Virus record (IMG/VR): IMGVR_UViG_3300037424_000898
Span: 1 to 64,000 of that record
Length of the DNA: 64,000 bases
Strand: one strand, 5' to 3'
DNA from: a virus
Made by a program: the position numbers and the translations under genes. Below the pieces are notes generated by a model. It was not told the origin of the DNA. It ran no database searches and saw only the letters and a list, made by a program, of their open reading frames with translations. Within the stretch, counting starts at the first letter, position 1; every line of letters starts with the position of its first letter. Below are positions 1-61,530 of this stretch, one piece after another.

Positions 1-75
1 AGGAGGGCCTGGATTACCGGCCCTCCCAGGACGGAAGGACCAGGACAATGTCTCTCACCTCTACGACCATTGCGG
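1..75. repeat. Wrap-around: bases 1-75 are identical to 63926-64000. The window is a circularly closed or terminally redundant 63,925-bp unit plus 75 bp.
   Basis: Direct base-by-base comparison of both window ends. The repeat includes the hairpin and the first 28 nt of the CDS starting at 48. Confidence 0.95.
2..26 (+). promoter_or_regulatory. GC-rich stem-loop just downstream of the major capsid gene (second copy at 63927-63951)
   Basis: GGAGGGCC-N9-GGCCCTCC forms a perfect 8-bp stem. There is no T-run, so it is more likely an attenuator or RNA-stability element than a classical terminator. Confidence 0.55.
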
Positions 76-602
76 CGGCACTCAACGCGACCGAGCGGAT
101 CTTCCACGTCACGTCGGCGACCGGGTTCGACGTCGGCGACTACGTCCGGATCAACGACGAGTTTGTGAAGATTCAGGAAATCCTGAGCACGAAGATCACG
201 GCCCAGCGCGGCCGATGGGGCACGAACGCCCGGGCGCACGGCATCCTGTCGATTGCCGTGGTCGGGGCGCCGGAGGATTGGGCACCGCGCCCAGCGAAGC
301 ACATCTACACGTACGGGGCGGCGGGGGCGGTGACGCCCGCTCCTGGCCTGCACCGCTTCATCGCGGCTTCGGCTGCGGCCATGACGCTGGCGGCCCCGAC
401 CGCGGACATGGAAGGCGAGGAGTTCACCTTCATCGCGGCGGCGGCGCAGGCGTACACCCTGACGCTGGACTCCGGCTACTTCAACGGGGCCACGAACAAC
501 ATCGGCACATGGGCAGGGGCGATCGGAGACGTCATCACCTGTGTCGTCGTGGGCGGATCCTACTGTGTGGTGACGAACAAGAACATCACCCTCAGCGCCT
601 AA
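48..602 (+). CDS. Post-capsid structural protein, paralog A (possible head accessory or decoration protein)
   Basis: 184-aa ORF. It is clearly paralogous to the next ORF (MSLTSTTIAAAL/MALTSTTLVAAI, RINDEFVKI/RVNDEFMAI, HGILSxAVVGxPEDW, AAMTLAAPTAD). The position right after the coat gene is the only functional hint. Confidence 0.75.
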   Translation: MSLTSTTIAAALNATERIFHVTSATGFDVGDYVRINDEFVKIQEILSTKITAQRGRWGTNARAHGILSIAVVGAPEDWAPRPAKHIYTYGAAGAVTPAPGLHRFIAASAAAMTLAAPTADMEGEEFTFIAAAAQAYTLTLDSGYFNGATNNIGTWAGAIGDVITCVVVGGSYCVVTNKNITLSA

Positions 603-614
603 GGGGAGGAAGAC

Positions 615-1385
615 ATGGCGCTGACATCAACCACTCTCGTCGCGGCCATCGACTCGGAACAGACCGAGTTCGCGGTCACGTCGGGTACTGGATTCGCCGT
701 TGGCTACGTCTTGCGAGTCAACGACGAGTTCATGGCCATCAAGGCCGTCTCGACCGCATGGATCCGGGTCGAGCGCGGTCAGGAAGGCACGCTGGCGCGG
801 GATCACGGGATTCTGTCGCTGGCGGTTGTCGGGTTGCCCGAGGATTGGGTGCCCGAAACCCCGAGTCACTTCTACACGTATGGCGCGGCCGGCGCCATCA
901 CGCCGGAGCGGGGGCTTCACACGCTCAAGGCGGCGAGCGCGGCCGCCATGACCTTGGCGGCGCCAACGGCCGACCAGGAAGGCGTCCGGCTACTCATCGT
1001 CGCAGGAGCGGCCTACGCCTACACCCTCGCGTTGGACAGCGGGGCGTTCAACGGTGGGACCGATACCGCCATGCTGCAGTTCGGCGGAGCCATCGGGGAT
1101 TGCATTGAACTGGTGGCCATCGGCGGGTCGTGGTGCATTGTCCAGAGCAAGAACCAGACGGCCGTCAGCCTGTCGGCGTCGGTGTCCCCGTCCAAGAGCC
1201 CGTCGGTAAGCCCGTCGGTCTCCGCGTCGGCTTCCGCGTCGGTGTCGCCGAGCACGAGCGGCTCGGCCACGCCGAGCGTCTCGCCGTCGAAGTCTGCGTC
1301 GGTGTCGCCGTCGGTGAGCCAGTCGGCTTCGCCGAGTGTGTCACCGTCCGTGTCGCCGTCGGTGTCCCCGTCGGCGTCGGCGTAG
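615..1385 (+). CDS. Post-capsid structural protein, paralog B, with a C-terminal (Ser-X)n tail
   Basis: GGGGAGGA lies upstream of the ATG. The first ~180 aa are paralogous to 48-602. The last ~72 aa are [16 protein letters not shown]... with Ser at every second residue. Confidence 0.8.
   Translation: MALTSTTLVAAIDSEQTEFAVTSGTGFAVGYVLRVNDEFMAIKAVSTAWIRVERGQEGTLARDHGILSLAVVGLPEDWVPETPSHFYTYGAAGAITPERGLHTLKAASAAAMTLAAPTADQEGVRLLIVAGAAYAYTLALDSGAFNGGTDTAMLQFGGAIGDCIELVAIGGSWCIVQSKNQTAVSLSASVSPSKSPSVSPSVSASASASVSPSTSGSATPSVSPSKSASVSPSVSQSASPSVSPSVSPSVSPSASA
1167..1382 (+). repeat. Coding low-complexity tract, strictly alternating (Ser-X)n
   Basis: [72 protein letters not shown]. Confidence 0.9.
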
Positions 1386-1422
1386 GTCGGGTCGGTTCGC
1401 TCAGCACGTCTGGAGGCGGTTC

Positions 1423-2298
1423 GTGCTTTCAGTGCTCATCCCGGCCCGTAACGAGCGGTATCTGCGGGCAACCGTCGAAGACGTGCTCCGTCAGGCCGTC
1501 GGGGATCTCGAAGTGATCGCGGTCCTCGACGGTCCCCCTTTCGATGTCTCACTGCCGGAGGACTCGCGTGTGCGGGTGATCCGGCATGACCAGCCTCACG
1601 GGATGCGCCCCTCGATCAACGAGGCGGCAGCGGTGTCGTCGGGGGATCTGCTGCTCAAATGTGACGCGCATTGCGCGTTCGCGCCTGGCTTCGACCGGGT
1701 CTTGACAGACTCCTACGAGGATGACTCGTGGGTCATGGTCCCCCGACGCTACTCGCTCGACCCGGTGACGTGGACGATTGACCATCGGGATCCGGCGCGC
1801 GACTACCACTTCATCGCATGGCCGTTTTCGGGTGAGTTCAAAGGGACGTTGGAGAGCGGGCCGGCGGTGCTGCGCGGGCGGGTCTGGCATCAACGGGCCA
1901 TCGACCGGAAGGATCTCCTTGTCGATGACGAGATGAGTTCGCAGGGCTCGTGTTGGGTGATGTCGCGGACGCAGTGGGAGCGGATTGGCCCGCTGGACAC
2001 GGCGCACTACGGACCGTTCATTCAGGAGTTCCAGGAGGTCGGTTTCAAGACGTGGCTGGGCGGCGGTCGAGTCGTCATCAATAAGCGGACCTGGTACGCC
2101 CACTGGTACAAGCGGAACGGGCAGGGCTACGCACTCTCGCCGCGGCAGTCGAAGGCGGGGATCGCGTATTCGTTCGACCACTGGTGGAACGACCGGTGGG
2201 AGCAGCGGAGACACGATTTCGCGTGGTTGGTCGAGAAGTTCTGGCCGTTGCCCGGTTGGCCGGAGAACTGGCGCGAATCGCGGAAGGCGGAATGTTAG
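1423..2298 (+). CDS. GT-A fold glycosyltransferase (GT2 / polypeptide-GalNAc-transferase-like), paralog 1
   Basis: GTG start 6 nt after GGAGG. Motifs: N-terminal SVLIPARNE...VIAVLDG, a DxH motif (LLKCDAHCAF) and WLGGGRVVINKRTWYAHWYK. Paralogous to 3219-4106 and 7332-8354. Confidence 0.75.
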   Translation: MLSVLIPARNERYLRATVEDVLRQAVGDLEVIAVLDGPPFDVSLPEDSRVRVIRHDQPHGMRPSINEAAAVSSGDLLLKCDAHCAFAPGFDRVLTDSYEDDSWVMVPRRYSLDPVTWTIDHRDPARDYHFIAWPFSGEFKGTLESGPAVLRGRVWHQRAIDRKDLLVDDEMSSQGSCWVMSRTQWERIGPLDTAHYGPFIQEFQEVGFKTWLGGGRVVINKRTWYAHWYKRNGQGYALSPRQSKAGIAYSFDHWWNDRWEQRRHDFAWLVEKFWPLPGWPENWRESRKAEC

Positions 2299-2517
2299 AT
2301 GGCCACGCTGCACACGAAATGTGACGAGTGTTGGGATCCGTTGCCTTGCAGTTGTCCTGCCCAACACGAGCGCGATAGGACAAAGCACATGACTGACTAT
2401 AGCGTCGCAATCAGCGATCTGAGTGACGCCGTAAAGGCGCTAGCGGACGCTGTGAAGGCGTTGAGCCAACGAGTGAAACGAATAGAGGCGGCATCAAAAC
2501 CAGGCCCTCGGCCCTGA
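2299..2517 (+). CDS. Small Cys-motif protein (HTKC-x2-CWDPLPC-x-C) with a helical tail, paralog 1
   Basis: The ATG directly follows the TAG of the GT gene. The N-terminal motif is shared with 6474-6662. Confidence 0.6.
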   Translation: MATLHTKCDECWDPLPCSCPAQHERDRTKHMTDYSVAISDLSDAVKALADAVKALSQRVKRIEAASKPGPRP

Positions 2518-2536
2518 CGCCGAGCAGTATCGCGTC

Positions 2537-2746
2537 ATGTCATCCGAGGAAACGGTTCTGATGGACTTCGCTGAGGCGATGCGCGCGGTCATGGACGGGA
2601 TGAGCGTGCGGCGACGGGCGTGGGACGACGCGCACTGCATCATTCGGCTGCGGTTGGGACTCATCGAGATCATGCTCAATCACACGTGGCGACCCTGGCT
2701 GATTTCGGACGTGGACGTAAAGGCGAAGGACTGGGAACTCGAATGA
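2537..2746 (+). CDS. DUF2829-like small protein (the family that contains the anti-Thoeris protein Tad2)
   Basis: 69 aa. DFAEAMRAVMDGMSVRRRAW near the N-terminus and WRPWLISDVDVKAKDWEL at the C-terminus match the remembered DUF2829 pattern (FGEAlxAlkxGkkvxRxxW ... DllaxDWxv). Confidence 0.5.
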   Translation: MSSEETVLMDFAEAMRAVMDGMSVRRRAWDDAHCIIRLRLGLIEIMLNHTWRPWLISDVDVKAKDWELE

Positions 2747-3222
2747 AGCGCCGAGGATGGTTGCCTCCAATTACGTTTGAACTTCGGCCGAGCAGTCGAG
2801 GACGCCTTTACTTTGCGGTCCATATCGCTGACACCGTTGGGTCAATGCGAGCAACGATGCGGCGGTGCGCCGGTTGGGTTCATCCCCAGCAAGTCGCCGC
2901 AGTCGATGGTGTAACGCAGTACGACAAACGCGCCCGCAAGACTGGGCTGTGCGGCATCATCTACATTCCCCGGACTCATCTTGGCGCGGGGCTTGTCGCG
3001 CATGAACTGTCTCATGCGGCGTTTCGGTATTGCGAACGACGGCGCCTGCGAATTGAGCACTGGAAGTGGGGTCCTCCGGCTTTTGGTCTATCCGTCAAGG
3101 CGAAGAAGGTCAGGGTGGACAGCTCCGAGGAAGTGTTCTGTGATGTCGTGGAGCACCTAAGCCGGCAGTTCTGGAGCGAGATTTTCGCAAGAGGCTTGGA
3201 CAAACCGAAAGGCAGAACGTGA
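2743..3222 (+). CDS. Putative zinc metallopeptidase-like protein (HExxH)
   Basis: ATGA overlap with the upstream gene. 159 aa containing HELSHAAF. No further family assignment is possible by eye. Confidence 0.45.
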   Translation: MKRRGWLPPITFELRPSSRGRLYFAVHIADTVGSMRATMRRCAGWVHPQQVAAVDGVTQYDKRARKTGLCGIIYIPRTHLGAGLVAHELSHAAFRYCERRRLRIEHWKWGPPAFGLSVKAKKVRVDSSEEVFCDVVEHLSRQFWSEIFARGLDKPKGRT

Positions 3223-4106
3223 GCAAGGTCAGCATCTTGATCCCGTCGCGCGAAGAGCCGTTCCTGCAGCGGACCATCGACGATCTGCTGTTGCAGCGGG
3301 ATGGCGACGTGGAGATCATCGCACTGCTCGATGGCTGGTGGCCGAATCCGCCGCTCAAAGACGATCCACACGTCAAGCAGATCCATTGGACGGTGCCGCA
3401 AGGACTTCGGTCTTGCCTGAATGCCGGCGCGCGGGTAGCCACGGGCGACTACCTGCTCAAGATCGACGCCCATTGCGCCGTGTCGGAAGGCTACGACGTG
3501 GAACTGGCGAAGGTCTGCGGGGACGATTCGATTGTCGTGCCGGCGAAGTACTCCCTGAACGCCGACACGTGGACGCGCTACCGGGAGCCCTGGCAGTACT
3601 TCTACCTCACCTTCCCGTGGGATCCGACGCTGAACCATCCCGGCTTGCACGACAAAGCCTGCGGGCCCGATGTGAACGCGGCGCGAGCGCACATCCAGCC
3701 GATTGACGACATCCTGAGCTATCAGGGCAGCGCGTGGTTCCTGACGAAGCAGCACTTCGAGCGCATCGGGCCGATGGACCCGGCGCGGTACTACGTCGCG
3801 CAGGAACCCCAGGAACTCGGGCTGGCGACGTGGCTGAATGGCGGGCGAGTCGTCATCCACAAGGGCGTGTGGTACGCGCATCTCTGGAAGGGGCGAGACC
3901 ACAAGCGGGGCTTCCGGCTGATCAAGCCGCGCTGGGTGCGAGCGCTAAGGGCGAGCGCTGAGCACTGGATGGCCCAGTCGGGGTTCCCGGCGCTGGTCGA
4001 GAAGTTCTGGGACGTGTTGCACGAGGCGCCGGTCGGGCCGTGGCCAGACGACTGGCAGGATCCGAAGTATCGGGTAGCGATTGACGCGAGGAAGGCAGCG
4101 GTATGA
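3219..4106 (+). CDS. GT-A fold glycosyltransferase (GT2 / ppGalNAc-T-like), paralog 2
   Basis: GTGA overlap start. Motifs: SILIPSREE...IIALLDGWWPNPPL, LLKIDAHCAV (DxH) and WLNGGRVVIHKGVWYAHLWK. Confidence 0.75.
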   Translation: MSKVSILIPSREEPFLQRTIDDLLLQRDGDVEIIALLDGWWPNPPLKDDPHVKQIHWTVPQGLRSCLNAGARVATGDYLLKIDAHCAVSEGYDVELAKVCGDDSIVVPAKYSLNADTWTRYREPWQYFYLTFPWDPTLNHPGLHDKACGPDVNAARAHIQPIDDILSYQGSAWFLTKQHFERIGPMDPARYYVAQEPQELGLATWLNGGRVVIHKGVWYAHLWKGRDHKRGFRLIKPRWVRALRASAEHWMAQSGFPALVEKFWDVLHEAPVGPWPDDWQDPKYRVAIDARKAAV

Positions 4107-4348
4107 AACATCAGCATCAGTGCGTGTGCGAGCACAACAACATCAAGTTGTGCAAGGTGTGCAAGGTTCCGTACTGCGTGGATTGTGGCAAGGAGTGGCA
4201 GGAGAAGGTGTTGTACAACACGTACTACTCTACCTGCCAGTATCCAAACATCTACCAGCACCAAACCACAGGGGGCCGTTCGGACGTAGTGGCTCTCATG
4301 ACAAATGCGGATGACTGTGGGCACAGGCATGAATCAGACCGCCCTTGA
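4103..4348 (+). CDS. Cys-rich small protein (zinc-finger-like)
   Basis: ATGA overlap start. Contains QCVCEHNNIKLCKVCKVPYCVDCGKEW. The segment is visibly less GC-rich than its neighbours. Confidence 0.5.
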   Translation: MKHQHQCVCEHNNIKLCKVCKVPYCVDCGKEWQEKVLYNTYYSTCQYPNIYQHQTTGGRSDVVALMTNADDCGHRHESDRP

Positions 4349-4979
4349 CGCCATCTGCGCTCGGTACAAGGTGGCCGACCTTGCGGGGTCGTTGCCACTC
4401 GAACTGGCCGGCGGGGTGCGGGCTGACCTGCCGCACCTGTTCCGTGACCTCGGCTACACCGTGGGCGCGGAGATTGGCGTCTGGCAGGGAGAGTTCTCCG
4501 AAGCACTCTGTCAGGGCATCCCCGACCTGCACCTGTTCGCGGTCGATCCGTGGGTGCGGTACAAGGACTATCACGACTACGAACTCCGGGCGAGCCTGGA
4601 GGCGGCCCGCGAGATGGCGATGGCCCGGCTCGCGGCCTTCCGCCACGTCACCATCATTCCAAAGTTCTCGCTGGAGGCCGCTGAGGACATCCCCGACAAC
4701 TCACTCGATTTCGTCTACATCGACGCGAATCACGGCTTCGAATACGTCGTGGCGGACCTCGCCGCGTGGACGAAGAAGGTCAAGCCGGGCGGCATCATCA
4801 GCGGGCATGACTACGTGAACATCCGGCGGTCGATTCCCGGCTTCCGGGTCGTCGAGGCGGTGCAGGGCTGGACCCGGGCGAACGACATCAATCCCTGGTT
4901 CATTCTGGGCCGCACGAAGGTGCATCCCGACCGGGAACCGCGCGACAAAGAGCGCAGCTATCTGTGGGTGAAGCCGTGA
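4329..4979 (+). CDS. Class I SAM-dependent methyltransferase (Methyltransf_24 / sugar O-methyltransferase-like), paralog 1
   Basis: Motifs: GAEIGVWQGEFSE (SAM-binding loop), DFVYIDANH, GGIISGHDY. Paralogous to 5836-6471. The start is uncertain; in-frame ATGs occur at 4305, 4311 and 4329. Confidence 0.7.
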   Translation: MNQTALDAICARYKVADLAGSLPLELAGGVRADLPHLFRDLGYTVGAEIGVWQGEFSEALCQGIPDLHLFAVDPWVRYKDYHDYELRASLEAAREMAMARLAAFRHVTIIPKFSLEAAEDIPDNSLDFVYIDANHGFEYVVADLAAWTKKVKPGGIISGHDYVNIRRSIPGFRVVEAVQGWTRANDINPWFILGRTKVHPDREPRDKERSYLWVKP

Positions 4980-5839
4980 CGGTCCTCGTCACGGGCGGCA
5001 CCGGGTATCTCGGACAAGTGTTCGTCCGGTACGCCCTCGACCACGGGGCTGAGCAGGTGGTCGTGTTCTCGCGCAGCGAAGAGACGCAGCGCCGGATGCG
5101 GATGGACATGTCGGATTCCCGGCTGCACTTCTGGCTGGGGGATGTGCGCGACAACGGGGCCTTGGCCCGGGCGATGACGGTGCATCCGGTCGAGGTCATT
5201 GTCCATCTGGCCGCGCTGAAGCACGTCACGAACTGCGAGCAGTTTCCCTTGGAAGCGGTTCAAACGAACGTCGTCGGGACGGCGAACGTGATTGACGTGG
5301 CGACCCGCTACGGCGCGCGTGTGCTGGCGATGTCCAGCGACAAGGCCGTGCAGAGTACGTGCGTCTACGGGGCCACCAAGGCCCTCTTGGAGCGGATTAT
5401 CGTGGCGGCCGGCTTCTCGGCTGTCCGGGCGGGCAATCTGATTGGGTCGACAGGCAGTGTGCTGCCGGTCTGGCGAGAACAGGTGGCCAAAGGCGAGCCG
5501 ATTACCGTCACGGACCCGACGATGACGCGGTTCTACATGACCGTGGACGAGGCGGCGGCGTTCCTCTGGCGGGCGGTCCATGTGATGCGGGGCGGCGAGG
5601 TGTTCGTGCCGAAGCTGGGCGCCTGCCGGCTGGGCGATCTGGCCGATGCCATCAGTCCGCATCAGCGGGTCATCGGGGCACGACCGGGCGAGCGAACGCA
5701 CGAACTGCTCATCCTGGAGGACGAACCGGTGCGCGACGACGGGTGGGCCTACGTGGTGACGGCTGGCGAACGGCCCTTCGGCCGCGTGCTCGTCTCGAAT
5801 GCGGTCTACGCACTTGAGGCAGCCGAGGTGACGGCATGA
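4976..5839 (+). CDS. Extended-SDR nucleotide-sugar 4,6-dehydratase (CapD / PseB / FlaA1-like, Polysacc_synt_2)
   Basis: Motifs: VLVTGGTGYLG, LGDVRD, VHLAALKHV, MSSDKAV, YGATKAL (YxxxK), GSTGSVLPVW, ITVTDPTMTRFYMTVDEAA, GGEVFVPKL. GTGA overlap start; an alternative GTG is at 4964. Confidence 0.85.
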   Translation: MTVLVTGGTGYLGQVFVRYALDHGAEQVVVFSRSEETQRRMRMDMSDSRLHFWLGDVRDNGALARAMTVHPVEVIVHLAALKHVTNCEQFPLEAVQTNVVGTANVIDVATRYGARVLAMSSDKAVQSTCVYGATKALLERIIVAAGFSAVRAGNLIGSTGSVLPVWREQVAKGEPITVTDPTMTRFYMTVDEAAAFLWRAVHVMRGGEVFVPKLGACRLGDLADAISPHQRVIGARPGERTHELLILEDEPVRDDGWAYVVTAGERPFGRVLVSNAVYALEAAEVTA

Positions 5840-6471
5840 CGGGGGCCTGTCGCGCCACCTTGGGCATCGTCAGCCAGCACTCGCCGTTGCCGGTGAGTTT
5901 CACGGCACCGATGCCGATGGTGCTCTCGGACTTCGGGCGCTACCAGTTAGCGATGCTCTTTGCGGAGTGCGGCTTCACGCGCGGCGCGGAGATCGGGGTC
6001 GCGGCGGGGAAGTACGCCGAACAGCTCTGTCACGCCAATCCGGGCCTGCACCTGGCGTGCGTGGACGCGTGGGAGACGTATCCGGGTTACGCCGACCACA
6101 CGGCCGTGCGGCTAGTCGAGGCGCGACAGGAGGCTCGAAGACGCCTGGCGTCCTACGACTGCCGGTTGGTCAAGGCCATGAGCGTGGAGGCGGCGAAGCA
6201 GTTCCGGGATGGGTCGCTGGACTTCGTCTACCTGGACGCCAATCACCGGTTTGAATGCGTTGTGGCGGATCTGGCGGCTTGGAGTCCGAAGGTGCGAACG
6301 GGCGGGATTGTGGCAGGGCATGACTACCACGTCTTTCCGCAGCATCCGCACTGGCGGGTCATCGAAGCCGTTCAGTCCTGGGTGCAGGCGTACGACGTGA
6401 GCCCGTGGTTCCTGCTGGACTACGGGCACCGGGGCACGCGGATTCATAGCTACTTCTGGGTGAAGGAGTAA
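5836..6471 (+). CDS. Class I SAM-dependent methyltransferase (Methyltransf_24-like), paralog 2
   Basis: ATGA overlap start. Motifs: GAEIGVAAGKYAE, DFVYLDANH, GGIVAGHDY. Confidence 0.7.
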   Translation: MTGACRATLGIVSQHSPLPVSFTAPMPMVLSDFGRYQLAMLFAECGFTRGAEIGVAAGKYAEQLCHANPGLHLACVDAWETYPGYADHTAVRLVEARQEARRRLASYDCRLVKAMSVEAAKQFRDGSLDFVYLDANHRFECVVADLAAWSPKVRTGGIVAGHDYHVFPQHPHWRVIEAVQSWVQAYDVSPWFLLDYGHRGTRIHSYFWVKE

Positions 6472-6473
6472 CG

Positions 6474-6662
6474 ATGGGGATGATTCACACGAAATGTCCG
6501 CAATGTTGGGATCCGCTTCCATGCGGATGTTCTGTTCAAACGGAACGCGACGAGACCGCGGCCGCTAACGCTAAATACCAGCGTGACCGAACGGCCAAAG
6601 AACTCTTGGAAGAACAGAAAGAAACGAACCGCCTTTTGCGCCAGATAGCAGAACGGAAATGA
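6474..6662 (+). CDS. Small Cys-motif protein (HTKC-x2-CWDPLPC-x-C), paralog 2
   Basis: MGMIHTKCPQCWDPLPCGCSVQTERDE... matches the N-terminus of 2299-2517. The tail is helical and charged. Confidence 0.6.
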   Translation: MGMIHTKCPQCWDPLPCGCSVQTERDETAAANAKYQRDRTAKELLEEQKETNRLLRQIAERK

Positions 6663-7339
6663 ACATCGCGGTCATGTCGGCCAACCTCGGGAACGCGGAA
6701 GCGCCGGTCCAGCACGTCGCCCAGGTCGTGCCGCCCTGGACGACCGTGTCGATGCACCTGTTCACGGACGAGACCTTCCCGCCGCGCCGGGCCGCAATGA
6801 CGCCCAGGCTGCAGAGCAAGCTCCCGAAGCTGTTCGGCTGGGAGATGGTGCCGGACTCTGACGTCTATGTGTGGATTGACGCGGCGTTCCGGCTGGCCCG
6901 CGAAGACTCCATCATCTGGCTGCTTCGACAACTGGCCGATCACGACATCGTCTTCTTCGAGCACCCGGAGCGACAAACTATCGAGGAAGAAGCCGCGTTT
7001 CTTCGGGACAACCTCGCCACGAGTCAGCGGCTTCAGGCGCGGTATCAGGGGGAACTGCTGGATGAGCAGATGGAGGCCATTCGGGCGACCTTCTCCTACG
7101 ACGAGCACCTGTACGCCAGCGGGATCTTCGCCTACCGGCCGATCCATCGTGTCAAGCAGGCGATGAAGGAATGGTGGTTCCACATCTCGCGCTACCACCT
7201 GAATGACCAGTTGTCGTTGCCCTACGCACTGGCGAGCGCGGACTGTGACGTGGCGACGATTGACGCACAGATCGGATACGGCTACCACGAGCCCCACTTT
7301 GAGTTCACGCGGACCAGCCGGAGGGTGAAGCGTGCCTGA
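6659..7339 (+). CDS. DUF616 / TOD1-MUCI70-like putative glycosyltransferase
   Basis: ATGA overlap start. Motifs LQSKLPKLFGWEMVPDSDVYVWIDAAFRL, FFEHPERQTIEEEA and NDQLSLPYAL match the remembered DUF616 pattern. Confidence 0.5.
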   Translation: MNIAVMSANLGNAEAPVQHVAQVVPPWTTVSMHLFTDETFPPRRAAMTPRLQSKLPKLFGWEMVPDSDVYVWIDAAFRLAREDSIIWLLRQLADHDIVFFEHPERQTIEEEAAFLRDNLATSQRLQARYQGELLDEQMEAIRATFSYDEHLYASGIFAYRPIHRVKQAMKEWWFHISRYHLNDQLSLPYALASADCDVATIDAQIGYGYHEPHFEFTRTSRRVKRA

Positions 7340-8354
7340 CCTCTCCGTGCTCATCGCATCGCGGAATGAGGTGTTCCTCAAGAACACCGTAGAGGACGTG
7401 TTGACGCACGCGGAGGCTGATACCGACGTCATCGCCGTCTGCGACGGGGCTTGGCCGACTCCGCCGCTCGTGGACCATCCGAAGGTCACGCTTGTGCATC
7501 ACGCGAGCATCGGGCAGCGGGCGGCGGTGAACGAGGCGGCCCGGCTCTCGACGGCGACCTACGTGATGAAGCTGGACGCGCACTGTGCGCTCGATCAGGG
7601 CTTCGACCGGAAGCTGATCGAGCCCTACGAACGGGGCGAATTGGCGCGCGAGGACACCACGATTCCCCGACTCTACAACCTGCACGCCTTCGACTGGCAG
7701 TGCCGGGCGTGTGGGGACCGGATCTACCAGGGAGCCAAGCCGTCAGCCTGCGGGAAGTGCAAGAGTCCGGAGGGCTTTGAGCGCGTCATGGTGTGGAAAC
7801 CGCGCTGGCATCGGAAAACGGACTTCAACCGGTTCGACGCCAACCTCCAATACCAGTACTGGCAGGGCGTGGACAAGCGGCCGGCGTCCCAGGGCGAGCT
7901 CGCCGACATGATGACGGCGCTCGGGGCGTGCTTCTTCATGCGTCGGGATCGGTTCTGGGAGTTGGGCGGGATGGACGAGGAACACGGTTCATGGGGCCAG
8001 TTCGGGGTCGAGGTGGCGCTGAAGTCGTGGCTGTCGGGCGGGCGGCATGTTGTGAACAAGCGGACGTGGTACAGCCACATGTTCCGCACGCACGGCGGGC
8101 CGGAGTGGGGCTTCCCCTACCCGATGTCCAATTCGCAGGTCGAGACGGCCCGAAAGCACTCGCGGGCCATGTGGTACCAGAACGCCTGGCCGCGACAGGT
8201 CCGGCCGCTCGACTGGCTAGTGGAGAGATTCGAGCCGGTCCCGGGCTGGCACCAGCCCGCATCGAAGGACGACCCACCGCAGCGCGAGGCGATTCTGGCG
8301 ATGGTGCAGCAGGCGGCGCTGATCTTCAGCCCGCGGCGCGAGGTGGCGGCATGA
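7332..8354 (+). CDS. GT-A fold glycosyltransferase (GT2 / ppGalNAc-T-like), paralog 3, with an inserted Cys4 zinc ribbon
   Basis: Motifs: SVLIASRNE...VIAVCDGAWPTPPL, VMKLDAHCAL (DxH), WGQFGVEVALKSWLSGGRHVVNKRTWYSHMFR. The insert is CRACGDRIYQGAKPSACGKC. Confidence 0.75.
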   Translation: MPDLSVLIASRNEVFLKNTVEDVLTHAEADTDVIAVCDGAWPTPPLVDHPKVTLVHHASIGQRAAVNEAARLSTATYVMKLDAHCALDQGFDRKLIEPYERGELAREDTTIPRLYNLHAFDWQCRACGDRIYQGAKPSACGKCKSPEGFERVMVWKPRWHRKTDFNRFDANLQYQYWQGVDKRPASQGELADMMTALGACFFMRRDRFWELGGMDEEHGSWGQFGVEVALKSWLSGGRHVVNKRTWYSHMFRTHGGPEWGFPYPMSNSQVETARKHSRAMWYQNAWPRQVRPLDWLVERFEPVPGWHQPASKDDPPQREAILAMVQQAALIFSPRREVAA

Positions 8355-9142
8355 CGAAGGGCATCGTCTACTACTCCGACTGCCGCGGCGACCCGGCCAT
8401 CCTCGAGACATGCTGGGCTCAACTACTCCGTGCCACGGCGGGCCTGTCGCTCGTGTCCGTGACGCTGCAGCCTGTCCCGGGCCTTGGGCTGAACATCGTG
8501 CCCTACCAGTCGGATGACACGGTGATCTGGGTCGATTCGAGTGAGCCGCCCGCCTCGCCGGAGCCATTCGCCCGGGAGTGGACACCGCTTGAGCGCGGCC
8601 GGCTGACGATGTTCCGCCAGATCCTCGCGGGTCTCGAAGCGCTGGACACCGACGTCGCGTTTCTGGCGGAGCATGACGTGCTGTACCCACCAGAGCACTT
8701 CGACTTCACGCCGCCGTCCGCCGACCGCTATTACTACGACGTTCACTGGTATCGGCTCGACGCGCACACCGGGCGGGCCGTGAGCTATCTGGCCAACCAG
8801 GTATCTGGCCTCTGCGCTGACCGGGAACTGCTGATTCAGCACTACCGGGCGCGCGTGGCGCGGACGGAACAGGCTGGCTACGACCACGGCACGGGCTACG
8901 AACCGGGGAACCATCCGCCGCCCCGTGGCATCGACCACGTGCCGCAGGAACGGTTCCGGGCGGCGCAGCCCTATATCGACATCCGCCACGGCTGCAACAT
9001 CACGGCCTCACGCTGGTCGCAGGACGGATTCCGCGACAAGCGGACGTGTACGGAGTGGCGCGAGGTGGACGAGATTCCCGGCTGGGGTCCGACGAAGGGC
9101 CGCTTTCCCGCGTTTCTGGCCGACGTGAGGGCACGCACATGA
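8351..9142 (+). CDS. Putative glycosyltransferase-like protein (unclassified)
   Basis: ATGA overlap start. Contains IVYYSDCRGDP...VSVTLQP...RGRLTMFRQILAGLEALDTDVAFLAEHDVLYPPEHF. The call rests on cluster context and an acidic EHD motif only. Confidence 0.4.
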   Translation: MTKGIVYYSDCRGDPAILETCWAQLLRATAGLSLVSVTLQPVPGLGLNIVPYQSDDTVIWVDSSEPPASPEPFAREWTPLERGRLTMFRQILAGLEALDTDVAFLAEHDVLYPPEHFDFTPPSADRYYYDVHWYRLDAHTGRAVSYLANQVSGLCADRELLIQHYRARVARTEQAGYDHGTGYEPGNHPPPRGIDHVPQERFRAAQPYIDIRHGCNITASRWSQDGFRDKRTCTEWREVDEIPGWGPTKGRFPAFLADVRART

Positions 9143-9843
9143 CCGCAAACAGTCTGATTCAACAGGCGCTCAAGTCCATCGGCGTGCTCGCGGCCGGGGA
9201 AACGCTGGGCGCGAGCGAGGCAACCGATTGTCTCACCGCGCTGAACGCGATGATCGACACGTGGGCGATCCACCACCTGACAATCGCCTACCGGACCCGT
9301 TCGACCTATGCGCTCGTCGCGGGGACGCAGACCTACTCCATTGGCGCAAGCGGCACGTTCGATCAAGTGCGGCCGGTCTATCTGGACGGCATCACCATCG
9401 CGCTTTCGGCGAGTCCGACCATCGAGACGCGGCTGGAGCCCTACACGGAAGACGAGTGGCGGATTCTCTCGACGCGGAGCCAGTCGGGCACGCCCAACCG
9501 GTACTACTACCGCAAGACGTTCCCGCTGGCCTACCTGTCGTTCTGGCCGGTGCCGGATGCGGCCGATACGGTGGCGATTTCGTGGGGCACGCCGCTCACC
9601 GAGTTCGCCACGCTTCTGACGGACTACGACCTGGCGCCGGGCTACCGGGAAGCGATTCGCTACAACCTTGCCGTGCGGCTCTGTCCGGAGTTTGGACGTC
9701 CACTCGATCCGACCGTCGCGCAGCTGGCCGTCGAGACGCTGGGCACCATCAAGCGGGCGAATATCACGCCAATGGACATGAGCGTGGACGCGGCGCTGTT
9801 GTTCAACACGAACAGCGCGTTCAACATCAACACCGGGGAGTGA
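9139..9843 (+). CDS. Head-to-tail adaptor, P22 gp4-like
   Basis: ATGA overlap start. The N-terminus QQALKSIGVLAAGETLGASEATDCLTALNAMIDTW resembles the P22 gp4 N-terminus (ALRKLGV...L..M...W). It lies immediately upstream of the gp10-like gene. Confidence 0.6.
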   Translation: MTANSLIQQALKSIGVLAAGETLGASEATDCLTALNAMIDTWAIHHLTIAYRTRSTYALVAGTQTYSIGASGTFDQVRPVYLDGITIALSASPTIETRLEPYTEDEWRILSTRSQSGTPNRYYYRKTFPLAYLSFWPVPDAADTVAISWGTPLTEFATLLTDYDLAPGYREAIRYNLAVRLCPEFGRPLDPTVAQLAVETLGTIKRANITPMDMSVDAALLFNTNSAFNINTGE

Positions 9844-9846
9844 GTC

Positions 9847-10095
9847 ATGCAGACCAACTCGTCCTACAACTACGCGAAGGCGGAAACCAAGAGCGACACG
9901 GTGGATTTCCAGAAGGGCACCTGTGACGCGATCTTCGTCGGGACCGAGGCGGGCAACGTGACCGTCGTGCTGGAGAACGGCGACACGGTGCTGTTCGTGG
10001 CCGTTCCGGTCGGGACGATTCTGCCGATTCGGGCGAAGCGCATCAACAGCACCGGAACCGGTAGTTCCACCTTCGTGGCGCTGTACCAGAAGTAA
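9847..10095 (+). CDS. Small virion-module protein, unknown function
   Basis: 82-aa ORF with GGGGAG upstream, located between the adaptor and the hub genes. Confidence 0.6.
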   Translation: MQTNSSYNYAKAETKSDTVDFQKGTCDAIFVGTEAGNVTVVLENGDTVLFVAVPVGTILPIRAKRINSTGTGSSTFVALYQK

Positions 10096-10100
10096 CGACG

Positions 10101-11279
10101 ATGCCTCGATATGCGGGCTTCATCGGCGGGACGCAGGTTCACCGTTCGTTGAACGTGAACGCGGAGCGGACGATCAACTTCTATCCGGAGTTGACCCAGC
10201 CGGGGAACGCCAAGAGTCCGATTGTGCTCCTCGGGACGCCGGGGCTGCGCGTGTTCGCGGATGCGGGCGGGTCGCCGATCTATGGCCTATGGGCGCAGGA
10301 CGGGCGCGTGTTCGCCGTGGCGGGCTCCTCCTTGGTCGAAGTCTTCGCCGACCGCACGACGACGGTGCGAGGCGTCGTGGCGGACAACGGCACGCCCGCC
10401 ACCATCGTGTCGAACGGCGTCGGTGGGTTTCAGTTGATGGTGATTGCCGGCGAACGGCTCTACTGCTACGACTTGCGAACCGACGAACTGACACAGATTT
10501 CGGGCACGCCGGCGCTCTCGGTGTCGGCCTCGCCATCGGGGAGTGACGATGGGGAGAGCGACTTCCCCGAGCGCGTGATGATGGGCGACTACATCGACGG
10601 GTACTTCGTGGTACTCGCCGGGGAGTGGCAACTCTACATCAGCGCGTTGAACGACGGGACAACCTGGGACGTCGCCGACACCGCGCAGGTGTCGAGCAGC
10701 AGCAACCGGATTCTGGCGCTCATCTGCGACCACAAGGAAGTGTGGCTGTTCGGATCGCGCAAAAGCGAGGTCTGGATCAACACCGGGAATGCTGATTTTC
10801 CGTTCGGCCCGATTCAGGGTGTCTTCATCGAGTTCGGCATCTGGGCGCCGTTCTCCGTGGCTCGCATCGACAACACCCTGTTCTGGATTGGCGCGGACGA
10901 ACGCGGGGCGGGCAAGGTCTACCGGATGCAGGGCTACAACCCGATCCGCATCTCGACCCATGCCGTCGAATACGCCTTCGGGCAGTCGTCCCGGCTGACG
11001 GAGGCGATCGCGTTCACGTACGACGAGGAGGGGCACAGCTTCTACTTCGTGTATGTGCCGGACCTCGAAACCTCGTGGGTCTACGACGTGGCGATAGGCC
11101 TTTGGCATGAACGGGCCATGTGGGACGCGACGTTCTCGCGCTGGTGGCCGCATCTCGCGCGGTGTCACTGCTTCACGACGTGGGGTCAGCACCTGGTTGG
11201 CGACCGGCAGAGCGGCACCATCTACCAGATGAGCCTGGACTACCTCGATGACGAACTGGTCATCGACGGAGGGTTATAG
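10101..11279 (+). CDS. P22 gp10-like tail hub ('phage stabilisation protein'), N-terminal propeller part only
   Basis: Motifs: INFYPE, LYISALNDGTTWDVADTAQ, EVWLFGSRKSEVWINTGNADFPFGP, FWIGADERGAGKVYRMQGYNPIRISTHAVEYA, GDRQSGTIYQMSLDYLDDE. It ends at TAG 11277-11279, just before the point where homologues continue into the C-terminal module. Confidence 0.7.
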   Translation: MPRYAGFIGGTQVHRSLNVNAERTINFYPELTQPGNAKSPIVLLGTPGLRVFADAGGSPIYGLWAQDGRVFAVAGSSLVEVFADRTTTVRGVVADNGTPATIVSNGVGGFQLMVIAGERLYCYDLRTDELTQISGTPALSVSASPSGSDDGESDFPERVMMGDYIDGYFVVLAGEWQLYISALNDGTTWDVADTAQVSSSSNRILALICDHKEVWLFGSRKSEVWINTGNADFPFGPIQGVFIEFGIWAPFSVARIDNTLFWIGADERGAGKVYRMQGYNPIRISTHAVEYAFGQSSRLTEAIAFTYDEEGHSFYFVYVPDLETSWVYDVAIGLWHERAMWDATFSRWWPHLARCHCFTTWGQHLVGDRQSGTIYQMSLDYLDDELVIDGGL

Positions 11280-13037
11280 GTGGGCCAGACAGCCGCAACA
11301 GCAACGGTCATTGCCAGCTTGCCCACGACGATTGTGGAGGACATCGCCGGTCTGGCCGGGGATCAACAGGTCTGGTACACCTACACGACCAATGGCACGG
11401 AATGCGCCTTCGGCGTCTACATCTGGTCTGAGCCGACGTGGGACTACCGCAAGGAAATTGTGATCTACTCCGGCACGCCGGAGGATCTGACGACCGTGTT
11501 TACGGTGTCTCCCACCGTAGGCACGTTGCAGGACAACTTCCCGATTTGCGTTCCCGTTGTCGGCGTGACGACCTACTACGTCCGAGTCCGCAACACGACG
11601 TTCGTGCAGCCGGATCCGGATGCGCCGCCGCTGACGGTGATGTTCACGCCTGCCCCGGTGGAGTCTGTCCCGCTGGGGTCGTTGCTCATTCCAGACGACA
11701 GTGAGGGGCATCCGCTCGTCGCGCTGGACGCCACCGATGGCCATGTGCGGCGCGTGGTGCATCCGTTTCCGCATGGGGAGACGGGCGCAACCTCGCCGGT
11801 CACGGGGCGTATTCTGGTCCGATCCGACGATCTGACGCGCATCGCCCTGTACGACTCTGACGTGTCATTGGTTACGGAGATTTCCGGTTTCCATGCCTCG
11901 GTCGAGAGCGACTGGTTTCCGCAGTTCTGCTGCTCAGAGGCGGGCACGTTCTATGTCGTGGACGAGGACGTGTCGGGCACGGGCGCATTGTGGCTGTGGG
12001 TCATTGCCGATGATGGTACTGTCATCAGCACAACCGACTTTCCGCTCACAGCCTATGTTGCGCTAGGCGGGATCGGCGTCTCTCCCGATGAGACGATCCT
12101 CTACTACGTCCAGAGCAACGGGGTCTTTCGGTACGATCTGGCGACCGGGACTAGTCTGGGTCTCTTCGTGGCGAACGCGGGCGGATACAACCCGCTGATG
12201 AATGGCGACTTCGCAGTCTATGCCGACGGATCCTTCCTGCTGTCGTGCAAGAAAACAATCGGTGGGGCCGCGTATGCGGTCAAACGATATGGCGCTGACG
12301 GGACGTTGCTGACGGCATATGTCATGACGGACGATCCGGCGGAGTGGTACATCCATCATATCGCCCGCGGCGTGACGGACAGCACGTTCTGGGTGTGGCA
12401 ACAGGCGATCGGGGTATTCGGGTATTACAACGGGTACGACAAATTTACTGAGTTCAACATCAGTGACGGATCGGTGGCGAGAGCGCTACCCACAGTGGTG
12501 GCGTTCAGCGAGGGAATTGCGATAATTGCGGGCGATGTGGACGCGCCCCGGTTCGCACACTCAAAGTCCTGTCCACTGCTCATTGCCCGCGTTGCAATAG
12601 CGTCGGCGTCCCCCTCCTCATCGCGTTCGGCCAGCGCGTCCGTGTCTCCGTCGGCGTCCTCGTCGCCCTCGCCATCCCCGAGCATGGCCGAGGAGCAGAC
12701 ATACCTGATTCGGCGGCTCCGGCAGGCGCCACACCTGTCCGACGAGCACCGCTGGCAGTTCCATCAACGCTTTCAGTTGGATCTGGAAACAGGCGTCGGG
12801 CTGTCGAGTGGACAGGGATCGGATCCCCAGATCATGTTGTGCTGGAGCGACGACCACGGGCACACCTGGAGTCACGAGCATTGGACGAGCGCGGGGAAGA
12901 TCGGCGAGTTCAAGAGGCGTGCGCTGTGGTACCGGCTGGGGCGAACGCGGGATCGGATCTATCGGGTGGTGGTGAGCGATCCGGTGAAGTGGGCGCTGGT
13001 TGATGCCTACTTGCAACTGGAATCGGGACGGCGGTAA
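11280..13037 (+). CDS. Tail protein: beta-propeller-like domain, Ser-X linker, then gp10-type C-terminal module
   Basis: GTG start after GGAGGG, in the same frame as the previous ORF. The C-terminus YLIRRLRQAPHL..LDLETGVGL..QIMLCWSDDHGHTWSHEHW..FKRRALWYRLGRTRDRIYRVVVSDPVKW matches the gp10-family C-terminus. Confidence 0.75.
   Translation: MGQTAATATVIASLPTTIVEDIAGLAGDQQVWYTYTTNGTECAFGVYIWSEPTWDYRKEIVIYSGTPEDLTTVFTVSPTVGTLQDNFPICVPVVGVTTYYVRVRNTTFVQPDPDAPPLTVMFTPAPVESVPLGSLLIPDDSEGHPLVALDATDGHVRRVVHPFPHGETGATSPVTGRILVRSDDLTRIALYDSDVSLVTEISGFHASVESDWFPQFCCSEAGTFYVVDEDVSGTGALWLWVIADDGTVISTTDFPLTAYVALGGIGVSPDETILYYVQSNGVFRYDLATGTSLGLFVANAGGYNPLMNGDFAVYADGSFLLSCKKTIGGAAYAVKRYGADGTLLTAYVMTDDPAEWYIHHIARGVTDSTFWVWQQAIGVFGYYNGYDKFTEFNISDGSVARALPTVVAFSEGIAIIAGDVDAPRFAHSKSCPLLIARVAIASASPSSSRSASASVSPSASSSPSPSPSMAEEQTYLIRRLRQAPHLSDEHRWQFHQRFQLDLETGVGLSSGQGSDPQIMLCWSDDHGHTWSHEHWTSAGKIGEFKRRALWYRLGRTRDRIYRVVVSDPVKWALVDAYLQLESGRR
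12603..12683 (+). repeat. Coding Ser-rich linker
   Basis: [27 protein letters not shown] lies immediately before the gp10-type C-module. Confidence 0.85.
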
Positions 13038-20240: not shown

Positions 20241-21170
20241 GTGATCCGAGAAGCGACGGCGAAAGATGCAGAACAGATCGTGGCGCTCGTCATGCGCTTC
20301 GGAGCCGAGCGTGGCCATCGAGACGAGATGACAAGTCGGCCTGAATTGCTAATGTCAGTGCTGCGAAGAACCCTTGGGTCGCCAGATGGAACGGTGTTTG
20401 TGTCGGATCGGGACGGTCAGGTAATCGGAGTTATTGCGCTGTGTCTCATTCGTCACCCTCTCTCCTACGAACTGTCGGCCACGGAACTCGTGTGGTTTGT
20501 TGCGCCAGAACATCGGGGGCATGGGCTGCGGTTGTTGCGTGCGGCCGAGGAATGGGCGATTCGGCAGGGCGCAACTCGGCTGTCGCTCGTCGCGCCAACT
20601 ACTCAGACCGAACGCATTTATGGTCGCTTGGGTTATCGGGCGATGGAGCCCATATTCATTCGCGAATTGCCATTGCCATCGGTACGCTTTAGGCCAATGA
20701 CCCTAGACGACAGTGCGCTTGTGTGGGCGTGGTTGTGGCAACAGCCTCAGTGGAACGTTGACGATGGTAGTCCTAAAACGCTAGAGGAGTTTCGGGTTGG
20801 ATTGGAGCAGCGATTCGCGGCAAACGAATCAGCGCGCATTGTCCTGTGGCCCGATAACGAACCATGCGGTGTGGTCGGATTTAGTGATATGGGGCACGGT
20901 GTCGGAATGTTTCGCGGTGTGTGTTTTGACGAAGCGGTGCATGGACGAGGGATTGCTCGCGCAGCGATAGCGCAGATGCTTTCCAGTTGGTTCGACGGGG
21001 GATACAGGAAGGTCGTTGCGGCGTTCTTTGCTCATAACCAACGAATTGCGCGCATCTTCCGCAGGCTCGGAGCGGTCGGCGAAGGATTGCTTGTAGCCCA
21101 AGTGAAACAGCAAGGGCATCCGATCGACATGCAGTTGGTGGCATTTTTCAAGCCAGAAAGCAAGGGGTAA
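20241..21170 (+). CDS. Tandem double-GNAT N-acetyltransferase
   Basis: Two GNAT-like halves are present (...VWFVAPEHRGHGLRLLRAAEEWAIRQGATRLSL... and ...VCFDEAVHGRGIARAAIAQMLSSWFDGGYRKVVAAFFAHNQRIARIFRRLG...). The gene is visibly less GC-rich than the flanking late genes. Confidence 0.7.
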   Translation: MIREATAKDAEQIVALVMRFGAERGHRDEMTSRPELLMSVLRRTLGSPDGTVFVSDRDGQVIGVIALCLIRHPLSYELSATELVWFVAPEHRGHGLRLLRAAEEWAIRQGATRLSLVAPTTQTERIYGRLGYRAMEPIFIRELPLPSVRFRPMTLDDSALVWAWLWQQPQWNVDDGSPKTLEEFRVGLEQRFAANESARIVLWPDNEPCGVVGFSDMGHGVGMFRGVCFDEAVHGRGIARAAIAQMLSSWFDGGYRKVVAAFFAHNQRIARIFRRLGAVGEGLLVAQVKQQGHPIDMQLVAFFKPESKG

Positions 21171-55405: not shown

Positions 55406-55690
55406 ATGCCGAGAGGGGGCTCGCGGCCTGGTTCGGGACGGAAGCCCGGGTCGAAAACACGGGCCGGCGCGGATGCGCGCGTTGATGTCCGCATTCTCGC
55501 GGCGGCTTACACTAAGGACGCGCTCGCGGCGCTGGTCGATATCGTGAGGGATCCCAAGAGCCCGGCTGCGGCCAAGGTTATGGCGGCCCGAGAACTCCTC
55601 GACCGCGGTTGGGGCAGGGCGATGCAAACCCATGAGTTGACAGGCGCCGAGGGCGGCCCGCTGATCATCCAATGGCAGAGCGAGTCGTAA
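55406..55690 (+). CDS. terS: Terminase small subunit
   Basis: MPRGGSRPGSGRKPGSKT... followed by a helical domain. It lies directly upstream of terL and overlaps it. Confidence 0.65.
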   Translation: MPRGGSRPGSGRKPGSKTRAGADARVDVRILAAAYTKDALAALVDIVRDPKSPAAAKVMAARELLDRGWGRAMQTHELTGAEGGPLIIQWQSES

Positions 55691-58035: not shown

Positions 58036-58206
58036 ATGGCAAAATCTCAACCTGTGAAGCAGAGTCACCCGCGCCGGTCGAAGGACCGCGACCTGCCGCT
58101 GCCGCCGGGCGCCCAGCCGGACCCGCGGCTGAAGCAGAGCAACTACGGGAAGATCAAGCGCGGGCTTGCTGGTCTGGCAGCGTTCGACAAGATCGGGAAG
58201 AAGTAG
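58036..58206 (+). CDS. Small basic protein (56 aa, below the ORF-track cutoff)
   Basis: Hand translation: MAKSQPVKQSHPRRSKDRDLPLPPGAQPDPRLKQSNYGKIKRGLAGLAAFDKIGKK. Confidence 0.35.
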   Translation: MAKSQPVKQSHPRRSKDRDLPLPPGAQPDPRLKQSNYGKIKRGLAGLAAFDKIGKK

Positions 58207-58207
58207 C

Positions 58208-61451: not shown

Positions 61452-61530
61452 GTTGTACGGCCCAGATTCGCGGCCTGACGCCGCGCCGTGTAGTGACTTC
61501 GCGGGCACGCCCCGCGCCGGAGACCGAGAG

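Follow-up and report, generated by a model that had tools for sequence, protein, structure and literature searches.

A glycan-transfer island in the structural operon of a P22-like phage and its association with (Ser-x)n tracts: a candidate system for virion O-glycosylation

The subject of this study is a 64,000-nucleotide stretch of viral DNA (IMG/VR virus record IMGVR_UViG_3300037424_000898, positions 1 to 64,000), which we refer to as the window, and in particular an island of 13 plus-strand open reading frames (ORFs) at positions 1423-9142, located between the coat-proximal proteins and the gp4-like head-tail adaptor of a P22-like phage. The island is nearly certainly a glycan-transfer cassette. 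Our preferred reading, to which we assign a probability of about 0.62, is that it constitutes a late-expressed phage system for protein O-glycosylation, the substrates being the (Ser-x)n tracts within at least five virion-module proteins. This reading is carried by the joint occurrence of cassette and tracts in metagenomic phages and by the resemblance of the island glycosyltransferases (GTs), in sequence and modelled fold, to the polypeptide GalNAc-transferases (ppGalNAc-Ts). An earlier note on this DNA, prepared from its letters alone, had proposed a candidate virion glycosylation system and drawn attention to a protein with a Ser-rich tail directly ahead of the island; the tail is indeed a (Ser-x)n tract, although the protein is not the sole one of its kind but one of five. 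Also new here are the wide distribution of the cassette and its association with the tracts.

Island genes and candidate substrates

The island comprises the following genes (aa, amino acids):

1423-2298, plus strand: GT1, a GT-A enzyme of type A with the motif CDAHC; Pfam PF00535, E 3e-15; best PDB sequence match GalNAc-T4, E 2e-3
2299-2517, plus strand: small Cys-containing protein of 72 aa, paralog of 6474-6662
2537-2746, plus strand: small Tad2-like/DUF2829 protein; Pfam PF11195, E 1e-8
2743-3222, plus strand: 159-aa protein containing the HExxH motif AHELSH; unmatched in Pfam and NCBIfam
3219-4106, plus strand: GT2, a GT-A enzyme of type A with the motif IDAHC; PF00535; AlphaFold2 (AF2) model
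4103-4348, plus strand: Cys-rich protein of 81 aa; no Pfam match
4305-4979, plus strand: S-adenosylmethionine-dependent methyltransferase 1 of the Methyltransf_24 family, a candidate sugar O-methyltransferase; Pfam PF13578, E 1e-16
4964-5839, plus strand: PseB/FlaA1-like UDP-GlcNAc 4,6-dehydratase, a short-chain dehydrogenase/reductase of short form; Polysacc_synt_2, E 4e-73
5836-6471, plus strand: Methyltransf_24 methyltransferase 2; Pfam, E 8e-16
6474-6662, plus strand: small Cys-containing protein of 62 aa, paralog of 2299-2517
6659-7339, plus strand: TOD1/MUCI70 (DUF616)-like putative glycosyltransferase, a borderline assignment; PF04765, E 2e-4
7332-8354, plus strand: GT3, a GT-A enzyme of type B with the motif LDAHC and a CxxC...CxxC insert; PF00535; best PDB match PGANT9, E 3.5e-5
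8351-9142, plus strand: GTx, a divergent protein of predicted GT-A fold with a conserved E-H-D motif; AF2 predicted local distance difference test score (pLDDT) 94.2; no Pfam or NCBIfam match

Eight of these genes are sugar-related (the three DxH GT-A enzymes, the two Methyltransf_24 proteins, the PseB-like dehydratase, the borderline TOD1/MUCI70 protein and GTx), and five are not sugar enzymes (the Tad2-like/DUF2829 protein, the HExxH protein and the three small Cys-rich proteins).

Long (Ser-x)n tracts with a period of 2, from 41 to ~280 aa in length, are present in five virion-module proteins, which we regard as the candidate substrates (nt, nucleotides):

615-1385, plus strand: coat-proximal protein that ends, at its C-terminus, in a (Ser-x)n tail of 79 aa (nt 1146-1382), directly upstream of GT1
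11280-13037, plus strand: tail-hub-associated protein composed of an N-domain, a 41-aa (Ser-x)n linker (nt 12582-12704) and a gp10/Hc3 C-domain
13038-15029, plus strand: virion-module protein whose interior holds a (Ser-x)n tract of 151 aa (nt 14226-14678)
15040-16848, plus strand: tail-hub-associated protein composed of an N-domain, ~280 aa of (Ser-x)n (nt 15625-16494) and an Hc3 C-domain
28114-30105, plus strand: beta-helix tailspike that ends, at its C-terminus, in a (Ser-x)n tail of 143 aa (nt 29674-30102); Pfam Pect-lyase_RHGA_epim and Beta_helix; PHROG tail spike

Three of the five contain recognised virion-protein domains, namely the tailspike and the two proteins with a gp10/Hc3 C-domain. 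The tracts are constant in composition. Their register position is Ser in 99% of cases, while x is P (26%), A (21%), V/I (V, 21%) or E (11%). The underlying DNA is only loosely repetitive and uses all six Ser codons, which indicates that the pattern is selected at the protein level. The coat-proximal substrate candidate has a paralog at 48-602 (58% identity over 182 aa) that lacks the Ser tail.

Cassette and tracts occur together in metagenomic phages

Relatives of the island GTs, all from metagenomic data, are encoded on 440 IMG/VR stretches, and a protein search yielded 82 clusters. The best 80 of these IMG/VR loci with a GT homolog are the basis of all counts out of 80 given below. In a forward test we looked within 10 kb of the GT homolog for (Ser/Thr-x)n tracts that reach 24 aa or more. 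Such tracts were present in 68 of the 80 loci, nearly all of them on the GT strand and over a GC content of 34-69%; after dereplication at 90% GT identity, 59 of 71 clusters had tracts, and the 12 negatives were all short loci. As controls we used 92 loci fetched via the terminase or the coat protein of the window. Two of them contained a tract, and one of these two also has a GT and a methyltransferase; the difference between GT loci and controls is highly significant (Fisher p = 1.4e-32). For the reverse test, a DNA pattern for SPS[AV]SPS[AV]S was used to retrieve 120 IMG/VR stretches, 59 with true tracts and 61 with chance matches. A GT was encoded within the same short stretch in 18/59 tract-bearing cases as compared to 0/61 tract-free ones.

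Across the loci the genes follow a conserved order: tract protein, type-A GT, methyltransferase, type-B GT and GTx. A Methyltransf_24 homolog is present in 70/80 loci and a GTx homolog in 67/80, with GTx adjoining the type-B GT in 61/80; the type-B copy comes after the type-A copy in most loci, and in half of them (40/80) the gene directly upstream of the type-A GT encodes the tract protein. In a typical tract protein, an N-domain of 150-450 aa precedes 100-800 aa of tract, which is followed by a short C-terminal tail. The N-domains are very diverse across loci, and PHROG provided no functional name for those of seven tract proteins from other loci and three from the window. The window island is an expanded version of this cassette, with two type-A GTs, two methyltransferases, the dehydratase, the TOD1-like protein and the small genes. 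A homolog of the TOD1-like protein was detected in 16/80 cassette loci, and no homolog of the dehydratase was detected in any of the 80.

The cassette resides in head modules of unrelated phages of the P22, HK97 and Mu types. It follows a Mu-type portal in locus L005, lies between the portal and the prohead protease in the HK97-type locus L010, and follows TerL and a probable portal in L041, while in L001, an unrelated 43-kb phage contig, it comes after tail and lysis genes and stands beside ~470 aa of tract. The occurrence of the same cassette together with tracts in dozens of unrelated phage contigs places the arrangement of the island far beyond chance.

The gene caller of the Joint Genome Institute (JGI) has placed minus-strand genes over the plus-strand (Ser-x)n tract of L001 (7453-8860). 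Short (Ser-x)n tracts also occur on contigs of giant-virus metagenome-assembled genomes (MAGs; L274, L293, L295 and L335), with no detectable GT homolog within those stretches.

Outside IMG/VR, GT relatives were found on 117 stretches among GTDB species representatives. The 78 GTDB loci listed all come from uncultured genomes, nearly all of them MAGs, and their bins are mostly Patescibacteria, Planctomycetota, Anaerolineae and 'Gammaproteobacteria', with a few archaea. Many GTDB copies of the GT lie in bins of Patescibacteria/CPR (candidate phyla radiation), some on contigs longer than 150 kb. Among 50,697 GenBank phages, GT1, GT2 and GTx had no significant tblastn match.

The glycosyltransferases resemble polypeptide GalNAc-transferases

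GT1, GT2 and GT3 are paralogs (pairwise identity 29-39%). All three are matched by Glycos_transf_2 (PF00535; E 3e-15, 3e-11 and 7e-8), and the W..GGR.V.....WY.H block is present in the paralogs alongside the CDAHC, IDAHC and LDAHC motifs. A family profile of 27 members matched TgGalNAc-T3 (6s22) with an E-value of 7.7e-14; the alignment spans the entire catalytic domain (positions 4-254 of 290) and takes in both the DxH motif (DaHC) and the C-terminal His (vgHvf). The other full-length matches of the profile were nearly all ppGalNAc-Ts, whereas other structures of the GT2 family aligned mainly over the N-terminal third. The AF2 model of the island protein GT2 (pLDDT 94.6, predicted template modelling score 0.92) gave a consistent picture: the top 50 Foldseek matches in the PDB were all ppGalNAc-Ts, with E-values of ~1e-16 to 1e-14 and query template modelling (TM) scores of 0.60-0.69. 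Thus, in sequence and in predicted fold the GT paralogs resemble polypeptide GalNAc-transferases.

D83 and H85 of the DxH motif as well as H221 are invariant across the 27 family members, and DxH is retained in 156/162 family copies; we infer that these residues bind metal. The island GTs are 291-340 aa long, PF00535 is their only Pfam domain, and they have neither a ricin-type lectin domain nor a type II membrane anchor. In the absence of a lectin domain and a membrane segment, they would act in the cytoplasm, where virions assemble. It is the genomic coupling to the tracts that points to a polypeptide as the acceptor of the sugar. The insert of GT3 (aa ~119-163) matches the zinc ribbon of eL37.

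The last island gene, GTx, has 249 homologs, none of which contains a Pfam domain. Within this family E107 and D109 never vary and H108 hardly does, and Foldseek returned weak matches of the AF2 model to diverse GT-A enzymes (TM ~0.4).

The remaining enzymes and the small genes of the island

The two methyltransferases are 43% identical to one another. Among phages, the best match to the island methyltransferase comes from a Lokiarchaeota virus. The dehydratase has H. pylori FlaA1/PseB (2gn4) as its best PDB match (E 2e-59) and keeps the SxDK...YGATK residues; PseB is also its best NCBIfam match, at 235 bits, which is under the equivalog cut-off of 408. The TOD1_MUCI70 match of 6659-7339 is partial, covering profile positions 142-228 of 314, and with 21.1 bits falls just short of the 21.4-bit cut-off.

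What the earlier note had read from the letters is borne out by these searches, with minor corrections, and each part of its interpretation that could be checked held. The 13 co-oriented, mostly overlapping genes were recovered with their junctions, the three DxH paralogs with the WxxGGR block do belong to Glycos_transf_2 and resemble ppGalNAc-Ts, and the two Methyltransf_24 paralogs and the PseB/CapD-type dehydratase are what they had been taken for, the latter with the reservation about the PseB cut-off. The profile searches that the note had recommended did not place the GTs in families of the lipid-carrier type (Pfam, NCBIfam). Two assignments are less firm: the DUF616-like glycosyltransferase matches PF04765 only at a borderline score, and the further GT-like protein, our GTx, is backed by weak GT-A fold matches while belonging to no Pfam or NCBIfam family.

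The Tad2-like family (Thoeris anti-defence 2-like) is also represented between two GTs of L001 (9804-10001), and tblastn detected the protein in just 6/80 cassette loci. The HExxH protein, which has a weak PHROG match to a family of unknown function, is possibly a zinc peptidase within the island, as judged from its motif. The small paralogs 2299-2517 and 6474-6662 have the motif HTKCxxCWDPLPCxC in common; together with 4103-4348 and the CxxC...CxxC insert of GT3 they make up several putative zinc-binding elements in the island.

The island is part of the head-to-tail operon

Intergenic distances within the island range from -44 to +19 nt, with ATGA overlaps at several junctions. The first island gene starts with GTG at 1423, preceded by a GGAGG Shine-Dalgarno sequence and 37 nt past the stop codon of 615-1385, and at the other end the start of the adaptor gene overlaps the end of GTx by ATGA. 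No sigma-70-like promoter sites were found in positions 1-12000. The island sits within an uninterrupted, translationally coupled head-to-tail operon and is missing from the relatives of the phage backbone.

Of the annotated relatives, Xanthomonas phage PBR31 and Manatee Spring phage (MW202520) are the closest, with a coat identity of 43-46%. In PBR31 the coat gene is directly followed by two small genes and the adaptor, and in Manatee Spring phage the interval from coat to hub gene also contains two tail genes together with additional small genes. Neither phage contains an island gene or a tract, and each has one intact hub gene. Since both relatives are devoid of island and tracts alike, island and tracts were gained together on one backbone.

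The hub gene of the window, by contrast with the intact gene of the relatives, is split at the junction of its N- and C-parts, and the C-domain is present twice (in 11280-13037 and 15040-16848; 62% identical). Each copy stands C-terminal to a different N-domain, or display domain, and a Ser tract. PBR31 has a single Hc3 gene, to whose C-end the C-domain of 11280-13037 aligns. Stop-codon read-through between the parts of the split gp10/Hc3, which are in frame, was rejected, as a GGAGGG Shine-Dalgarno sequence and a GTG follow the TAG. The split may be a means by which display domains are attached to the hub in trans.

A model of tract glycosylation and its alternatives

In the model that we favour, the coat, tail and island genes, whose order and coupling are observed, would be co-transcribed as one late operon. 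The type-A and type-B GTs would move hexose or N-acetylhexosamine (HexNAc) in the cytoplasm from a host uridine diphosphate (UDP)-sugar to the Ser hydroxyls of the tracts, and GTx and the TOD1-like enzyme may then extend the glycan. The PseB-like dehydratase is predicted to provide a 6-deoxy-4-keto-HexNAc donor, a contribution specific to this phage, and the two Methyltransf_24 enzymes would O-methylate the sugars. The outcome would be a dense glycan brush, similar to that of mucins or of serine-rich repeat proteins (SRRPs), carried by the linkers and tails that belong to the tailspike, to the tail-hub appendages and to the coat-proximal protein. Such a brush could stiffen the spacers, protect them by making them protease-resistant and alter the virion surface. 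That the tracts are the glycosylation targets of this candidate system seems to us probable.

Several observations weigh against this model. About half of the long-tract loci lack a GT within the short stretch available, and MAG loci with more distant GT homologs have nearby tracts in just 27/78 cases. The phage encodes no partners of the dehydratase (PseC-PseI; an aminotransferase or a reductase). Thr is usually preferred by ppGalNAc-Ts, whereas the tracts are almost purely Ser. Finally, the co-occurrence of cassette and tracts could in part result from a shared mobile module or from shared host clades.

This last point is taken further by the alternative that the tracts are unmodified flexible linkers, that the cassette acts elsewhere, and that the two travel jointly on one mobile module or within host lineages. 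The low proportion of MAG loci with nearby tracts and the high diversity of the N-domains of tract proteins would both fit such a scenario, and Ser- and Pro-rich linkers are common in some phyla. We nevertheless consider it unlikely: the tract gene adjoins the type-A GT in 40/80 loci, the association extends over GC contents of 34-69% and over P22-, HK97- and Mu-type head modules, no GT was found in the 61 tract-free stretches, and profile and fold suggest an enzyme type that is directed at peptides.

More doubtful still is that the island remodels the host envelope (lipopolysaccharide, exopolysaccharide, S-layer or cell-wall glycans), resulting in superinfection exclusion or lysogenic conversion. 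JGI's automatic annotation labels the GT a 'glycosyltransferase involved in cell wall biosynthesis', dehydratases of the PseB/CapD type work in surface-glycan pathways, and serotype conversion is the classical role of phage GTs (review cited in PMC12619734). Set against this, none of the island proteins has a membrane-like or hydrophobic segment, and none belongs to a flippase, polymerase, GtrA/B/C-type or polyprenyl-phosphate/lipid-carrier GT family (Pfam, NCBIfam). The island lies inside the late head-to-tail operon without promoter-like sites, no integrase was found among the window proteins scanned, and the link with the tracts would be left unexplained. Nothing, then, points to lysogenic conversion, in keeping with the view taken in the earlier note.

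Although DNA glycosylation by diverse phage GTs is known (Pyle 2024, cited in PMC12619734), it is highly improbable that the enzymes hypermodify phage DNA with sugars (T-even glucosyl-hydroxymethylcytosine or other glycosylated bases) or act on a small molecule, given that a scan of the large proteins of the early region showed nothing like a hydroxymethylase or thymidylate synthase, that the closest structures are peptide GalNAc-transferases, that the cassette sits in head and tail modules and not in replication modules, and that the tract link again goes unexplained.

Coming back to tract glycosylation, the distribution described above raises a broader proposition, namely that there is an unrecognised, large group of uncultured tailed phages with a two-part 'glyco-tag', made up of a portable (Ser-x)n module attached to a variety of virion proteins and a four-gene cassette that would glycosylate and methylate it in the host cytoplasm, which would be a bacterial-virus counterpart of mucin-type O-glycosylation and independent of the mycobacteriophage systems. 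We lean slightly towards this proposition. The group as delimited here includes P22-, HK97- and Mu-type head modules and GC contents of 34-69%, and related contigs fall into bins of Patescibacteria, Planctomycetota, Chloroflexota and others.

If the model is correct, the range of virion glycosylation would widen to a broad variety of environmental phages (the 440 IMG/VR stretches; none among the cultured phages of GenBank), through an enzyme family that resembles the initiators of animal mucin-type glycosylation. Substrates would be predictable from sequence by means of the (Ser-x)n tag, and the compact cytoplasmic pairing of tag and enzymes might be used for glyco-engineering of proteins or therapeutic phages in bacteria. 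It would also account for a type of low-complexity region on which gene callers go wrong, and public data probably mis-annotate such tracts often. Models of how phages adsorb, how stable and how visible to immunity they are, and how particles behave in polysaccharide-rich settings would furthermore have to allow for a glycan coat.

Genomic setting of the window

The first 75 nt of the window are identical to the last 75 nt (1-75 versus 63926-64000), which indicates that the assembly is circular with a length of ~63.9 kb (~63,925 bp). The window has a GC content of 64% and carries every gene on the plus strand. PHROG and Pfam matches reveal a P22-like gene layout:

55672-56967, plus strand: large terminase; PHROG/Pfam
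58166-60460, plus strand: portal; PHROG/Pfam
61441-62505, plus strand: scaffold; PHROG/Pfam
62642-63886, plus strand: P22-type coat protein; PHROG/Pfam
48-602, plus strand: coat-proximal protein without Ser tract, paralog of 615-1385, after the wrap-around
9139-9843, plus strand: gp4-like head-tail adaptor, the right boundary of the island; phrog_12985 and phrog_637 (Ad3)
10101-11279, plus strand: gp10/Hc3-like hub protein; PHROG/Pfam

The N-terminus of 48-602 has only weak PHROG matches, to tail-fibre and virion proteins. Downstream of the hub genes the window encodes more tail proteins and ejection proteins, followed by the beta-helix tailspike. The contig derives from a JGI metagenome, and no tRNAs were found in the window. 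Directly after the coat gene there is a GC-rich hairpin (GGAGGGCC...GGCCCTCC), which may be an attenuator ahead of the downstream late genes. A double-GNAT acetyltransferase is encoded at 20241-21170, in the tail/ejection module; as PBR31 has an acetyltransferase at the equivalent position, this is a gene of the backbone and not of the island. In the early region, 40346-41311 has a weak match to an IS110-family transposase domain (PF02371, E 1e-4).

Relation to known glycosylation systems

To our knowledge, phage-encoded virion glycosylation has been shown for some actinophages only. The precedent is that of Che8 and others (Freeman 2023, cited in PMC11256854 and PMC12619734), in which the glycans form a shield on virion proteins (PMC11256854). 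In Corndog, gp35-38 comprise an O-methyltransferase and GTs that sit between portal and prohead protease, in the structural operon (PMC4351075). The earlier note had contrasted the placement of these genes in a structural operon with the usual one near att in temperate phages; in this respect Corndog is a precedent. As in the mycobacteriophage systems, phage-encoded GTs and a methyltransferase are co-located with virion genes, both here and in L005, L010 and L041, and the cassette of L010 occupies the very position that the O-methyltransferase and GTs have in Corndog, the interval between portal and prohead protease.

The enzymes themselves are different. When family profiles were compared with Corndog gp36-38 by hhalign, the probabilities were at most 4%, and the GTs are thus not orthologous; the island methyltransferase 4305-4979 matches gp35 with a BLASTP E-value of 0.23, and the Methyltransf_24 enzyme is the only one that has mycobacteriophage matches, which are distant. 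We therefore rejected the possibility that the island is the mycobacteriophage system in another phage, there being no relationship to Corndog gp35-38 by hhalign or BLASTP. The substrates reported for mycobacteriophages are the C-termini of capsid and tail-tube subunits, whereas those proposed here are dedicated (Ser-x)n modules, and the hosts of mycobacteriophages are actinobacteria, while the host of the present phage is not known to be one.

With the GT27 ppGalNAc-Ts the island GTs share the GT-A fold, the DxH motif and a Gal/GalNAc-T-like region with a C-terminal His, and the proposed acceptor is likewise rich in Ser and Pro and densely modifiable. Unlike those enzymes, to which they are only 16-22% identical, they are of ~290-340 aa and have no lectin domain, anchor or secretory pathway, and the tracts are Ser-only as opposed to the Thr-rich acceptors of GT27.

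Chlorella virus PBCV-1 is similar in that virus-encoded cytoplasmic GT-A enzymes (A64R and other GTs) serve a virion protein, as proposed here from the genes, and A64R is among the weak fold matches of GTx. PBCV-1 is, however, a eukaryotic giant virus without Ser-repeat modules, and its glycans are atypical, N-linked and carried by the major capsid protein.

In the SRRPs of Gram-positive bacteria (Fap1, GspB, SraP and PsrP), Ser-x repeats are hyper-O-glycosylated in the cytoplasm, and the variable glycans are built by several GTs whose genes cluster with that of the substrate (PMC8498110). The candidate substrates of the present phage have a long Ser-x repeat region of the same kind. Unlike in SRRP systems, the island proteins include no GtfA/GtfB (GT-B, GT4) pair and no accessory Sec components (SecA2/SecY2) by Pfam and NCBIfam; the carriers are phage virion proteins without a cell-wall anchor, and the enzymes are of the ppGalNAc-T type along with a new GT-A family.

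The literature searched contained no account of a link between cassette and tracts, which is in itself no proof of novelty. By analogy with the systems compared above, the phage system would work in the manner of actinophage and SRRP glycosylation, with enzymes that are GT27-like, and would be a strict member of none of these groups.

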